Shown: positions 12,173 to 24,846 of the stretch, in pieces
Numbering within the stretch: the first letter of the stretch is position 1
Layout of the letters: the number at the start of each line of letters is the position of its first letter
Position numbers and translations under genes: made by a program
Notes under the pieces: model-generated
Databases searched by the model: none
The model's input: the letters and a program-made list of their open reading frames with translations, nothing else
What the model was told of the DNA's origin: nothing
DNA from: Limnothrix sp. BL-A-16
Lineage (GTDB): Bacteria; Cyanobacteriota; Cyanobacteriia; CACIAM-69d
DNA: 64,000 nt
Direction: 5' to 3'
Assembly (NCBI GenBank): GCA_041937175.2
Contig: CP166615.1
Coordinates: 3,296,001 to 3,360,000 of the forward strand

Positions 12173-12894
12173 TAGGCCGCTTGGGAGGGTTGATCGATCG
12201 GGGAGGCTTTGTGTTGGTCGATCGCGGCCTTGCATTGGTCAATCGAACCCCGATCGCGCAGTTGGGCCACCAAAGCACCATAGGCTCGCTCATTCTGTTG
12301 CAGCAGCGTCTTGGCTCGCAAAATCGACAAATTCATTTGGGCGGTGGCATTGGGGCGGTTGCCTTGGCCCTGGGTGCTGAGTTGGGCCCAAAGGCTCAGG
12401 AGCTTTTGGCGATCATCGCCGCCGCCTTCTGCGTTGCCATACACCAACTGTTCAGCAGCAATGCCCGCCATCCAAACGGTGGCGTAGTGACTGAGAATGC
12501 GGGCCGGCACTTCACCGCGATCGAGCCATTGGGCCAGCTCCTGATCGGCAAATTGCACCCCACCGGAACCGGGATAGCCCTGCTGGAACGCTTCCCAGGC
12601 ATTGAGGGCATAGCCAGAAACGGGAATTTCCAACAAGTGGGCCACCAAAAAATGGCCCGCCTCGTGGTGCAAAATCCGATCGCGGTGGGTAGTTGATCGG
12701 TTGGCAAACCAGTCCACCAGCAAGGTGCCGCCCCGACCTTGCCACCCAAAGCGATCGACCGCCGCCAATCCCAAAAAACCAGCGGTGAACAGGGCTGGCA
12801 CTTCCGCCGGGAGCGCAATCAAGGGGCCAAACAGGCTAGACAAGGTGACCACAAACACCCCGATCGCAACCAGATTGAGCGTGATGTTTCCCAT
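12172..12894 (-). CDS. Peptidase M41-like zinc protease (ATP-dependent Zn protease family)
   Basis: Two N-terminal TM helices, HHEAGHFL zinc motif, MAGIAAE..GGGDD. Confidence 0.85.
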   Translation of the reverse strand: MGNITLNLVAIGVFVVTLSSLFGPLIALPAEVPALFTAGFLGLAAVDRFGWQGRGGTLLVDWFANRSTTHRDRILHHEAGHFLVAHLLEIPVSGYALNAWEAFQQGYPGSGGVQFADQELAQWLDRGEVPARILSHYATVWMAGIAAEQLVYGNAEGGGDDRQKLLSLWAQLSTQGQGNRPNATAQMNLSILRAKTLLQQNERAYGALVAQLRDRGSIDQCKAAIDQHKASPIDQPSQAA

Positions 12895-13730: not shown

Positions 13731-13820
13731 ACCTTCCGCAGTTAGGGCTTCCGCCATTGGGTTAATCAACGGACTGAAGACAAGGGGAAGCGGGAAGCGG
13801 GTTTGAACACAAGCCATCGG

Positions 13821-14048
13821 GTCGATCGAGTCCGGCTGCGATGGCTAATTGTTCTAACCCCAACCCACCCAGACAAGGGGTTTAAACCCCTTGCCCCTGC
13901 GATCGAACAACGGCAGCGCGATCGGCTGGATCGGGTCGATCGAGTCCGGCTGCGATGGCTAATTGTTCTAACCCCAACCCATCCAAACAAGGGGTTTAAA
14001 CCCCTTGTCCCCACGATCGAACAACGGCAGCGCGATCGGCTGGATCGG
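13821..14048. repeat. Two near-identical 114-bp tandem units, each containing the palindrome caaggggtttaaaccccttg
   Basis: Units start at 13821 and 13935; palindromes at 13874-13893 and 13988-14007. Confidence 0.92.
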
Positions 14049-14238
14049 CTCGATCGGCTACAGTCGTCACCGTAACTTGTGACGATTCTCACGGGCGATC
14101 GTGGATCAGGTATTAAGCGGTCAAAACCCGATGGCGCTAAGCTGTAAGTCGAATTAACGGCGGTCTGCGAGGAACCCCCCCATCAGATCGCGATCGTGAA
14201 CTGGCATGTTGGGGCGATCGCACGTCAAGATAATAGGT

Positions 14239-15874: not shown

Positions 15875-16229
15875 AGCTTCAGTTCCTTTGCCGATCCCTT
15901 TTCCCATCTATCATTGACCGGGATGCCTAAAAACTGCGGGATTCGATCGGCCACTGACGCGATCGACCAATCCCTAATGAGGCTTTCCTGAATGACGGAA
16001 TTTCCCATTCTCAAGATCCAACGACGCTGTACTTTGGAGATAGCAATCAGCAGGGGTTCATTAGCGGTCGAAATTGCCCAAATTCAACCATTCCCATCGC
16101 CAACATTTCCCACCTTCAGCATTTCCAACATTCTTCAGCATTGAAAACTCCCAGGATTCAGCATTTCCAGGATTTAGTATTTCCAACACAAGGGTTAACC
16201 AACAGCTAGGCAAGGATTGAGGTATTGGC

Positions 16230-16652
16230 GTGGAAACAGCGGAGCAAGCAAATCAGCAGGTGAACCCAATCCAAATCACCTATCCTGAGAAAACGGTGCA
16301 TCGAGCCGCGCGTGCTGTCCGCTGTGCGCCGTTTGGGGTGAAGTTCTACGAGTCCATGCGCAGTCGCAGTGTGGCGATCGCGGAGTTGGTGGGTGTGGCG
16401 GCGGTGAAACAATCCATGACCCGATCGCCCTTGAGCGAATTGACCGCAGAAAACGAACTGATGTGGCTAATTCAGGTGGGGATGTTACGACGGGAGGTTG
16501 ATGGTCAAGGTTTGACCGATCGATTCCGGCTCACACCCCTGGGGTTTTTGTTGCTCGATCGGTGGCAAACGAACCCCGCCGCCTGGACTCAGGGCCGATG
16601 GGGCGATCGCCTGCGGAATAGTCTGTGGCGCTGGGGACGATGGCCCCTCTAA
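16230..16652 (+). CDS. Npun_F0494-like conserved cyanobacterial protein
   Basis: ELMWLIQVGMLRREVDGQGLTDRFRLTPLG motif. Confidence 0.8.
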   Translation: METAEQANQQVNPIQITYPEKTVHRAARAVRCAPFGVKFYESMRSRSVAIAELVGVAAVKQSMTRSPLSELTAENELMWLIQVGMLRREVDGQGLTDRFRLTPLGFLLLDRWQTNPAAWTQGRWGDRLRNSLWRWGRWPL

Positions 16653-16840: not shown

Positions 16841-18259
16841 ATGGACACACAGGCTCTCAAAGCAATTTTGCTGATCGGCACAGGTAACGCGGCCGGGAAG
16901 TCGCTGTTGGCTTCGGCGCTCGGTCGGCTGCTGTATCGACGGGGTCTGAAGGTGGCTCCCTTCCAAGCCCAAAGCACCTCCTCGATGCTCTACACCACCA
17001 ACCAAGGGGAACAAATCGCCTATTTTCAGGCGGTGCAAGCCTGGGCGGCCCGCACGGAACCCCAAGCGGATTTCAATCCCCGTTGTCCCGGTGATCAGTC
17101 TCCGGAACGGGTCTGGGCGGTGCTCAAACAATCCCTTGAGCGGTTAACTCAGTCCTTTGATGTGTTGGTGGCCGATGGGGTGGGCAGCCCGGCCGATGCG
17201 TATTTGACGGGGCAGGATGTTTGTAACTTGCACTTGGCGCAAACCCTGAATGCGCCTGTGGTGTTGGTGGTGGATGCCGATCGGGGGGGCTGGTTGGCCA
17301 GCGCGATCGGGACGTTGGAGCTGATGGATCCAACCGAAAAAGCACTGGTACGGGCGATCATCATCAACAAATATCGGGGCAATCCCGATCGGCTCAAACC
17401 CGGCCGCGATTGGTTGGAGCAGCGCACCGGAATTCCCGTGGTGGGAGTCATGCCTTGGCTCCAGAACCTCTTCCCCTCGCCCGAGTCGATCGACCTGTTT
17501 GCTCGCCGTCGTCGTCAATCGGATATTGAAACCACGATCGCCGCCGTCCGCTTGCCCCACATCGCCAGCTTCAGCGATCTGGATCCGCTGTCGGCCGAGC
17601 CAACGGTTTCCCTTCGCTACATTGATTTGGGTCAAGAATTGGGCTATCCCGACGCGGTGGTTTTGCCGCGATCGAACAACCTAGCCGAAGATCTCCAGGC
17701 CCTGCACCAATCCGGCTTTGCGGAAGATCTCCAGCAATACGCGATCGCGGGCGGCACTATTTTGGGCATTGGCGAAGGATTCCAGATGCTGGGTCGCCAA
17801 GTGGTGCAACTGCAAGGGCTAGACACCGCTTCCCAAGAACTGATGGGGCTGGATCTGTTGCCCATCTCCAGCATCACCACGGGCGACTGGATCGATCGGG
17901 AACGCCAGGCCACCTCCAACTATCCCCAAGCGGGCTTACCGGTCACCAGCCGTGAATTTCGCCAAAGCTACACCCAAATTTTGGACAACCAAAGCGTGCA
18001 ATCTCTCTTTGACGATTCCAAGCTGGGCGTAGTGTCCAGCAGCCAACTGGTTTGGGGAACCTATCTGACGGACATTTTTGATAGCAGTCCCTGGCGACGG
18101 GCTTGGCTCAATCGTTTGCGCCACCAACGGGGTCTGTCTTCCTTACCCACGGGAATTCCCGACTACCGGGAACACCGGGATATGTTGCTGGATTCACTGG
18201 CCGACGATGTGGCGGTCAACATCAATCTCGATCGACTCTGGGCCGCCATCGGCCTTTAG
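16841..18259 (+). CDS. Cobyric acid synthase CobQ-like protein with degenerate catalytic motifs
   Basis: Colinear with cyanobacterial CobQ (AQAVQAWAA-like, DADRGG, INKYRG, RLPHIASFSDLDPL, PWRRAWLNRLR), but GICGG reads GIGEG and YLHG reads YLTD. Confidence 0.88.
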   Translation: MDTQALKAILLIGTGNAAGKSLLASALGRLLYRRGLKVAPFQAQSTSSMLYTTNQGEQIAYFQAVQAWAARTEPQADFNPRCPGDQSPERVWAVLKQSLERLTQSFDVLVADGVGSPADAYLTGQDVCNLHLAQTLNAPVVLVVDADRGGWLASAIGTLELMDPTEKALVRAIIINKYRGNPDRLKPGRDWLEQRTGIPVVGVMPWLQNLFPSPESIDLFARRRRQSDIETTIAAVRLPHIASFSDLDPLSAEPTVSLRYIDLGQELGYPDAVVLPRSNNLAEDLQALHQSGFAEDLQQYAIAGGTILGIGEGFQMLGRQVVQLQGLDTASQELMGLDLLPISSITTGDWIDRERQATSNYPQAGLPVTSREFRQSYTQILDNQSVQSLFDDSKLGVVSSSQLVWGTYLTDIFDSSPWRRAWLNRLRHQRGLSSLPTGIPDYREHRDMLLDSLADDVAVNINLDRLWAAIGL

Positions 18260-18319: not shown

Positions 18320-18391
18320 TGGGTGACCTGGGATTCGAACCCAGAACCAGCGGATTAAGAGTCCGATGCGCTGCCGTTGCGCCAGTCACCC
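18320..18391 (-). tRNA. tRNA-Lys(CTT)
   Basis: Cloverleaf GGGTGAC/GTCACCC acceptor stem, GCGC D-stem, anticodon loop CTCTTAA, T-loop TTCGAAT. CCA not encoded. Confidence 0.93.
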
Positions 18392-23697: not shown

Positions 23698-24846
23698 TCA
23701 AGGATTCTTTAAACAATCCGTAACCTCGCCACCGTCTGGGCCGGGGGGTTCAGGCGTTTGGGGCGATCGCGCATAGCCTAACCGCACCGCGCCGGGGGGA
23801 AGATGCAATTCCGCAGCAAGTTGATCGGAAAATTTGACCCGAAGTTCTCCGCGTGAGGTAATGCCCACGGCGATCCCGGTGCGATCGCCCACTTGCACCG
23901 ATCGCCCGCAGGTTTCCAGCAATTCCAAATAATCCGCCAAAAAACTTTCGAGGCCGCCCGTTTGGAGTTGTCGATCGCCCCGGTCTAAACCCGCGATCGC
24001 CAGGGCTGCCAACTCCGCGAGTGATCGAATCGGTGGCCCACCCTCCAAGGGGAAATCGGCAGACGGCAACAAAGGCGGGGCACTCAGTTGATTCGCCTTG
24101 TTCGCCAACGCACCGGCCCCATTCAGCGGATGAGAGCCATCAGCGACATTGGACGAGTCCGATGAACGATCAGCCCAATAACCCGAAAGATCTAAAGGAT
24201 CTAGGCGATCTACTAGTTGACGATCTACTAATTGATTTGATTGATCTGTTTGATCATGCAGACGATCTACTAATTGATTTGATTGATCTGTTTGATCATG
24301 CAATCGTTCCGGAAACGCCAGCTCTGGAAACAGCTCCGTGGCATTGATCCCCGTCTCAGGAACCGGATTAGCCCAATTCAACCCCAATCCCGTGACCGCG
24401 CCGGCAATTTTGCCACCCACCAGCCGGGTTTCCGTCAGCAACCCGCCCCACTTGCGTCCCCGAACGACCAAATCGTTGGGCCACTTCAGCGCCACCGGCA
24501 CACCCCGATCGCGCAGGGTTTGCCCCAAACCCCAAGCGGCCGCCAAGGTCAGTTGGGCCCCATCCTCCGGTAACAACTGGGGGGCAAAATAGCGCGAGAG
24601 ATACAATCCCCCCAAGGGCGACAACCATTGGCGGCCCCACTGCCCCCGCCCGGCCGACTGTTGCAGCGCAATCACAATCGTCCCCGGCTGGGCCCCCGCT
24701 TGGGCCAGTTCCCAGGCCACCTGATTGGTGGAGCCAGTCTCCGCTAGCACCTGCAACCTGGGCAACCGAACACCGAGCCGCGCCGTTTCGCGCAACACGG
24801 CGGCACTGAACTCTGCGGGGTCGATCGGGGTGGTTTCCAGCACCAA
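23698..24846 (-). CDS. birA: Biotin--[acetyl-CoA-carboxylase] ligase with an internal repeat insertion
   Basis: STN, QSAGRGQWGRQW, LKWPNDL, KWGGLLTE, GLGLN. Confidence 0.9.
   Translation of the reverse strand: MVLETTPIDPAEFSAAVLRETARLGVRLPRLQVLAETGSTNQVAWELAQAGAQPGTIVIALQQSAGRGQWGRQWLSPLGGLYLSRYFAPQLLPEDGAQLTLAAAWGLGQTLRDRGVPVALKWPNDLVVRGRKWGGLLTETRLVGGKIAGAVTGLGLNWANPVPETGINATELFPELAFPERLHDQTDQSNQLVDRLHDQTDQSNQLVDRQLVDRLDPLDLSGYWADRSSDSSNVADGSHPLNGAGALANKANQLSAPPLLPSADFPLEGGPPIRSLAELAALAIAGLDRGDRQLQTGGLESFLADYLELLETCGRSVQVGDRTGIAVGITSRGELRVKFSDQLAAELHLPPGAVRLGYARSPQTPEPPGPDGGEVTDCLKNP
24219..24302. repeat. Perfect 42-bp tandem duplication inside birA
   Basis: gacgatctactaattgatttgattgatctgtttgatcatgca x2, encoding LHDQTDQSNQLVDR x2. 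Confidence 0.95.

Follow-up and report, generated by a model that had tools for sequence, protein, structure and literature searches.

Cobyric acid synthases (CobQ/CbiP; TIGR00313, PRK00784; EC 6.3.5.10), which carry out four amidations of adenosylcobyrinic acid a,c-diamide, are two-domain proteins whose N-terminal fold recurs in BioD/MinD-fold regulators such as the anti-activator FleN, the partner of FleQ. Pseudoenzymes can derive from moonlighting enzymes after xenologous displacement. A Cys and a His form the glutaminase dyad of CobB and CobQ (PMC5871853). GatD of the MurT/GatD pair, in which a CobQ-type domain serves outside B12 synthesis, is an active glutaminase that keeps both residues as Cys94 and His189 (PMC5871853). 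A full-text literature search that covered few subscription journals turned up no description of a CobQ that is catalytically dead or moonlights, and no solved CobQ structure was found by sequence or fold search.

The DNA analyzed, referred to as the window, is a 64,000-nucleotide stretch of the genome of the cyanobacterium Limnothrix sp. BL-A-16. A preliminary description had drawn attention to a native cobQ within it that has lost its catalytic motifs yet is maintained, and had proposed a non-catalytic role. The features that bear on this proposal are the following, with positions given in the window unless a locus is named.

16230..16652, plus strand: Npun_F0494-family gene (153 bits, cut-off 65); marks the native locus; winged-helix fold predicted; no obligate partner of CobQ
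16841..18259, plus strand: native cobQ, catalytically degenerate; 472 aa with a BioD-like N-terminal domain, a class I glutaminase-fold domain and a closing helix
16877..16903, plus strand: P-loop GTGNAAGKS, kept (GKS, residues 19-21); Lys20 present in 23 of 24 degenerate copies, lost in G424
16964..16978, plus strand: FKxQNM synthetase motif changed to QAQST, Lys42 to Gln (motif scoring)
17075..17104, plus strand: site of a genus-specific deletion of ~25 residues after NP79-80 (family comparison)
17174..17197, plus strand: EGAGSPAE changed to DGVGSPAD (motif scoring)
17366..17368, plus strand: Asn176 of NK(Y/F)RG, invariant in 24 of 24 degenerate copies (motif scoring)
17771..17773, plus strand: glutaminase nucleophile Cys311 changed to Gly (codon GGC)
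17918..17941, plus strand: NYPQAGLP hairpin tip, cyanobacteria-specific, kept (alignment and model)
18068..18070, plus strand: glutaminase His410 changed to Thr (codon ACG)
18092..18166, plus strand: WRRAWLNRLRHQRGLSSLPTGIPDY, helix and inter-domain linker; best-kept stretch across all degenerate copies and candidate partner-binding surface
L048:1149-1385, minus strand: 2Fe-2S ferredoxin-like gene, an example after native cobQ

The reading frame at 16841-18259 is open throughout, as first described. Its product, an ortholog of cyanobacterial CobQ as judged from its locus and its sequence (46-50% identity), scores above the cut-offs of both family profiles (TIGR00313, 374 bits against 309.9; PRK00784, 379 bits against 273) and contains the domain pair of the CobQ/CbiP family (Pfam PF13500/PF01656 and PF07685). 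All 14 scored catalytic-motif sites are altered. The substitutions reported earlier were all recovered: the losses of Cys311 (GICGG to GIGEG) and His410 (GTYLHG to GTYLTD), PFKxQNM to PFQAQST, PGSK to PRSN, GYEIH to SREFR with His374 replaced by Arg, EGAGSPAE to DGVGSPAD, and the NPILLKP..SQV segment, which is largely deleted. This deletion is found only in the window's genus and not in the other two genera of the family, one of which retains the Cys (GLCDG) yet has lost the His. An active cobyric acid synthase carries a Cys in GxCxG and a His in YLHG, where the window's protein has Gly311 and Thr410, and the synthetase motifs FKxQNM, NPxLLKP, EGAGSPxE and EDS are all altered; the P-loop GK[ST] and the cyanobacteria-type C-terminus are intact, as also reported earlier. 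The protein is, by its sequence, a member of the CobQ family that lacks the marks of an active cobyric acid synthase, and these losses argue strongly that it has no amidotransferase activity. Retention of ATP binding is moderately well supported by analogy to BioD, from which we take the P-loop Lys to act in ATP binding and Asn176 to be the adenine-binding position.

In an AlphaFold model of the protein (pLDDT 92), the N-terminal domain matches BioD (1a82, Z 19.4), the glutaminase-fold domain matches class I glutaminases (HisH, Z 20.0), and the last helix completes the BioD-like domain; catalytic residues lost from a fold that is predicted to be kept are characteristic of a pseudoenzyme. The protein resembles CobQ/CbiP in its orthology, its two-domain fold and its passing of both cut-offs. 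It differs in the missing dyad and synthetase motifs, in that the B12 step is covered by a cobQ of another clade in the same genome, and in that degenerate copies persist in genomes without the pathway. The closest solved relative of its C-terminal domain is GatD (6gs2, Z 19.1; profile E 6e-13). Unlike GatD, a stand-alone protein of ~240 aa, the window's protein has 472 aa, an N-terminal domain of its own and no dyad, and no GatD model is among its profile-search hits. With the FleQ-FleN complex (8p53, Z 15.3) it shares the N-terminal fold and a kept P-loop, but no family membership at the sequence level, and a regulatory role of CobQ is hypothetical. As in pseudoenzymes that arise after displacement, catalytic residues are gone and fold and interaction surface appear to be under selection; unlike that class, the CobQ case recurs at least six times from one ancestral enzyme in one phylum.

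A record titled Limnothrix redekei contains a gene that matches the window's cobQ at 99% identity. Contig sets from four RNA libraries cover cobQ and intergenic DNA alike, and a promoter and terminator scan gave a chance-level result. A tRNA-Lys follows at 18320-18391 (minus strand), and an imperfect tandem repeat of ~19 nt, variable in copy number between strains with insertions at 16113, lies 5' of the F0494 gene (16105-16185). Elsewhere in the window, an intergenic-looking region (13766-14092) holds a long direct duplication seen in six-frame translation, and a biotin-ligase-like ORF is broken by a repeated, low-complexity insertion (23698-24846 and 24021-24347). An ARAGORN call of a tRNA-Pro (12338-12429) within a protein-coding ORF on the opposite strand is probably spurious.

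The gene upstream of cobQ belongs to the Npun_F0494 family, and the statement in the preliminary description that cobQ follows this gene in many cyanobacteria is borne out: in 42 of 61 native loci, F0494 is the gene immediately before cobQ. Its presence here marks the window's cobQ as the ancestral copy, and locus and tree position agree that it is native, as had been proposed. The ancestral order places F0494 before native cobQ and a small ferredoxin gene after it, although degenerate cobQ is also kept with neither neighbor adjacent (f4, G317, G420). The F0494 protein, present in 199 of 221 cyanobacterial genomes, has an invariant RREVDGQG wing and a nearly invariant Cys32, is predicted to form a winged helix of the ArsR/MarR kind (pLDDT 88, with a middling best Z of 8.6), and yielded no paper in a literature search under the name Npun_F0494. 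The suggestion that the upstream protein is a partner of CobQ is weakened by its loose co-occurrence with native cobQ. F0494 remains where native cobQ is absent (17 of 17 g81 genomes, 5 of 5 f51 genomes), was not found in G420, which holds a degenerate cobQ, and was found in none of three g68 genomes, though the CobQ of one of them (G247) has the full C-terminal motif; it is also kept by reduced genomes despite erosion of that motif in their CobQ.

In 23 of 61 native loci, cobQ is followed in the same orientation by the short 79-aa 2Fe-2S ferredoxin-like gene. The ferredoxin-like product has an invariant C-terminal DPxW and was found in 184 of 221 genomes, with none in families f28 (0 of 15) and f30 (0 of 21); in Limnothrix the gene has moved to G000:C1:3822393-3822698 (minus strand) and carries a proline-rich insertion. 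The absence from f30 agrees with an obligate partnership with CobQ. This candidacy was nevertheless rejected: the gene is present in f51 and f57 genomes without cobQ, stands intact beside the cobQ pseudogene of G215, is retained in reduced genomes where the CobQ motif erodes, and was not found in G420. A complex prediction of the window's CobQ with the short ferredoxin and its cluster scored 0.02, against a mark of 0.32, a value that speaks neither for nor against the partnership. The short ferredoxin is possibly Synechocystis Fdx12 (ssr1041), a guess from locus numbering. Fdx12 is described as basic (bioRxiv 10.64898/2026.04.08.717189), whereas the short ferredoxins here look acidic.

A search of the Limnothrix genome for the cob pathway found cobB, cobN, cbiB, metE and metH, together with a second cobQ at G000:C1:3420443-3421954, ~60 kb past the window, which is 31% identical to the window's copy and has all catalytic motifs intact. 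The preliminary description had anticipated that the lineage might hold a second cobQ or lack B12 synthesis; the former applies to Limnothrix, and both occur in different lineages. Second-type copies constitute a separate clade on the CobQ tree (support 100), whose named members are scattered cyanobacteria, many of them Pseudanabaena, and an Opitutales bacterium at 61%. The second type was probably imported; a plasmid search for it gave a best match of 45%. Second-type cobQ adjoins cbiB in 15 of 34 loci (L069, L112, L113, L117, L124, L127 and L168 among others), which suggests that the two genes travel among cyanobacteria as a mobile module for late B12 synthesis.

Maintenance of the window's cobQ, as first proposed, is upheld by comparison with the sister species G402. 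Three nonsynonymous changes at 1044 sites and 44 synonymous changes at 357 sites (Fisher p 6e-24) give a dN/dS of 0.021 (Nei-Gojobori), far below 1 and indicative of the purifying selection expected of a pseudoenzyme. The intact second copy gives 0.081 for Limnothrix against G402 by the same method, other degenerate cobQ lineages give 0.03-0.18, and sole intact controls 0.07-0.25 (six pairs). Frameshifted orthologs, which would have pointed to simple decay, are absent from all seven family genomes in which the ortholog was found. Each of the family's three genera has the pair of degenerate and intact cobQ, which was seen in 7 of 8 genomes; the exception, G405 (a 730-contig draft, 93%), shows the second type only. 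Between genera, the degenerate copies are 50-57% identical and contain no stop, with synonymous sites saturated. Constraint is stronger on the C-terminal than on the N-terminal half in five degenerate pairs (for example, 0.011 versus 0.041 and 0.096 versus 0.230), a pattern that was not seen in the g34 and g5 pairs and that is reversed in the working second copy (C-terminal 0.141, N-terminal 0.013).

A cobQ match is present in 215 of 221 sampled cyanobacterial genomes. The second type occurs in 31, in 13 alongside a native copy and in 18 alone; the latter all belong to family f30, and their status was rechecked in seven of the 18. In nine genomes cbiB was not found, and native cobQ is present in four of these (one fragmented and omitted from the counts) and absent from five, while G559 (160 contigs) has cbiB and no cobQ match. 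Four further g34 genomes from another sample each carry one degenerate cobQ, with no cobB, cbiB or cobN found. The g34 protein group bears the name Picosynechococcus in its source records, a genus that includes B12 auxotrophs (PMC7205611, PMC8123684). For one auxotrophic strain, PMC7205611 interprets the retention of a 'CobQ' (QCS50783.1) as salvage. The degenerate ortholog of that strain is a different record, QCS50195.1, so this protein is not the one discussed in that paper; another Picosynechococcus ortholog is WP_012307263.1 (ACA99640.1). Among genomes outside Picosynechococcus, cbiB was not found in G439, G476, G485, G493, G545, G014, G447 and G424; neither cobB, looked for in five of them, nor cobN, looked for in six, was found, and metH is kept in seven of the eight. 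These are candidates for further B12 auxotrophs.

The degree of damage follows this distribution. Sole native copies in B12 makers have lost none of 14 sites (25 of 25), although the sites were drawn from consensus motifs and this control set is therefore partly intact by construction. Native copies that coexist with a second cobQ have lost 2-14 sites (17 of 17), and those in genomes that yielded no cobB, cbiB or cobN have lost 1-12 (7 of 7); the seven pathway-less genomes span four families, have no second cobQ and include three drafts of 200-490 contigs. None of the sites is lost in second-type copies (22 of 22) or in 33 of 40 other cobQ representatives. Groups g34 and g5 were first spotted through these scores, related genomes are not independent in the counts, and genomes with split or contig-end-cut cobQ (G414, G444, G467, G526, G335, G413) were omitted.

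Degeneration of native cobQ arose at least six times. On the CobQ tree, built with FastTree and LG+G4, three mildly damaged copies nest among intact relatives and ten strongly degenerate copies group together with support of 94, a grouping that is probably long-branch attraction; the rejection of a single clade for all 13 damaged copies is marginal (p-AU 0.037). The ChlH tree, an independent marker covering 28 genomes without G465 and G231, requires seven changes of the degenerate label, six of them forced by starred branches, and rejects a common origin of the ten strongly degenerate copies (p-AU 1.3e-7). G552 has two native-type copies: a damaged one at the F0494 locus, which has the C-terminal motif, and an intact one, which lacks it. 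Several unplaced metagenomic proteins (P0002, P0003, P0005, P0030, P0195-P0197) are deeply diverged degenerate CobQs with an intact C-terminal motif, and are possibly further independent origins.

Degenerate copies have no catalytic residue in common: Cys is kept in 13 of 24, His410 in 14 and Lys42 in 13. The C-terminal motif W418-G438 is present in 24 of 24, as are W68, N176, W418, W422, R430, L435, T437 and G438, and the Trp, Arg and Leu positions of this set are absent from all 22 second-type copies. The 18 Picosynechococcus-group proteins all carry the motif, as L[PA]TG. Two 20-residue blocks at ~405-444 are the best kept, with 0.76-0.78 identity to the intact consensus, compared with 0.48 and 0.10 in second-type copies. 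Overall, cyanobacteria-specific and family-core positions did not differ in retention (0.58 versus 0.66, p 0.23), and only the C-terminal block stands out. Since the motif is the linker to the helix that completes the N-terminal domain, its conservation may be partly structural.

The gene or its motif is dispensed with in certain lineages. Native cobQ was lost in f30, f51 and f57 upon replacement or loss of the pathway, and the intact copies examined in f30, f51 and f28 have no LPTG and fall outside the main group of the CobQ tree; these three lineages we take to be early-branching. In family f8, all seven reduced genomes (1.4-3.1 Mb) retain FKGQNM and GICGG, and YLHG was matched in five of them, but LPTG is in none; it is present in 4 of 5 larger f8 relatives, the exception being G167 with LPTS. 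In G215, cobQ is a pseudogene with nine stops, cbiB is also a pseudogene and no full ChlH match was found; in G209 the chelatase gene is broken. From their size and gene losses, the reduced genomes appear to be those of non-photosynthetic symbionts, and fast evolution across symbiont-type genomes is a competing cause of the loss of LPTG.

A CobQ that is damaged yet selected, also in organisms that do not make B12, suggests a second role. The starting points are observed: motif loss, a second gene, purifying selection, repeated origins and retention without the pathway. We lean slightly toward the reading that CobQ has two jobs in most cyanobacteria, one of them non-catalytic and adaptor-type. 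The first would be the established amidation of the B12 pathway, dependent on ATP and glutamine; it would have been handed to an imported cobQ, as in Limnothrix, or dropped with the pathway. Both active sites would then erode, while purifying selection would continue to preserve the fold, the core that binds nucleotide and a C-terminal surface specific to cyanobacteria (W68, 360-367, 418-442). Intact sole copies share the C-terminal motif, so the second job would coexist with the old active site. The weakest step is docking, through the 418-442 helix-linker, of a nucleotide-bound BioD/MinD-fold adaptor or regulator onto a part of photoautotrophic metabolism or its control; opinion is evenly balanced on whether degenerate CobQ works in this way. 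A photoautotrophic partner is proposed because the motif erodes in reduced symbiont-type genomes and is absent from early-branching lineages that lose the gene. Dispensability of the gene in some lineages (the 18 f30 genomes and five of nine cbiB-less genomes) speaks against two jobs, and all native-cobQ retainers tested keep metH, which leaves a B12-related role in contention. Synechocystis CobQ (Q55860) was detected by co-fractionation with eight predicted partners (scores 0.50-0.74), four of them named as slr1343, slr0489, sll1103 and sll2008 (PMC9880817); these offered no usable lead to a CobQ partner.

The main rival, which we regard as unlikely, makes dead CobQ a sensor or carrier of a corrinoid (cobyric acid, cobinamide or B12) that signals to a regulator such as F0494. 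The upstream position and winged-helix model of F0494, the B12-dependent metH of every retainer tested and the mostly retained Asp and Asn of RDLxN are consistent with it. The synthetase half, however, is the more eroded one and includes the 25-residue deletion of the window's copy, and metH is kept without a working cobQ in G215, G439, G476, G485 and G493. F0494, for its part, outlasts native cobQ in g81 and f51, was not found in g68 or G420 and persists in reduced genomes as the motif erodes. The corrinoid sensor, named among the possible roles in the preliminary description, is thus less favored because the N-terminal half is less constrained. That CobQ is still an enzyme with a new reaction, as an ATPase or ammonia-dependent ligase of a non-corrin substrate, appears improbable. 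Lineages share no replacement residue, Lys42 is lost in 11 of 24 degenerate copies and sole intact copies carry the same C-terminal motif, even though the P-loop GK[ST], an acidic residue 112 (Glu or Asp) and Asn176 are retained and the recruitment of a CobQ-type domain has a precedent in GatD (PMC5871853). The differences in substitutions between lineages point to relaxed sites rather than a new active site.

Two further explanations were weighed. In one, the dead copy serves the imported CobQ, or a complex for B12 synthesis, as an inactive subunit or a regulator. The reported dimeric state of CobQ (PMC8123684) fits this, and both types are kept in 13 of 31 second-type genomes; the explanation is nevertheless very improbable, with seven genomes in four families keeping a dead copy where neither a second cobQ nor pathway markers were found and 18 genomes having the second type alone. 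In the other, the redundant gene is slowly decaying and its frame stays open only because of its place in an operon. This would account for the long branches of degenerate copies and draws on the ancestral order between F0494 and the small ferredoxin. It is scarcely credible in light of the 3 versus 44 changes to G402, the frame that stays open across genera with saturated synonymous sites, the retention of the gene away from both neighbors (f4, G317, G420) and the different appearance of a truly decaying copy, that of G215 with its nine stops.

For the two-job reading, it is an even call whether a new C-terminal surface gave CobQ its non-catalytic function in the ancestor of most living cyanobacteria, and whether that function became so essential to photoautotrophy that the gene was kept as a pseudoenzyme at least six times, Picosynechococcus included, with relaxation only in reduced symbionts. 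A second job would be invisible by knock-out in B12 makers because B12 synthesis is also hit. Picosynechococcus is amenable to genetics and obtains its B12 from the medium (PMC7205611); it carries the dead copy alone, which makes the idea directly testable in a model genus. The window's dead copy scores above both cobQ cut-offs and is named 'cobyric acid synthase' in public records, by which genome-based calls of B12 synthesis or salvage can be misled. The repeated natural experiment would expose a hidden second function in a gene that nearly all sampled cyanobacteria have. If true, this would amount to an unrecognized conserved connection of photosynthetic metabolism to an ATP-binding enzyme of B12 synthesis, masked by the annotation 'cobyric acid synthase'.
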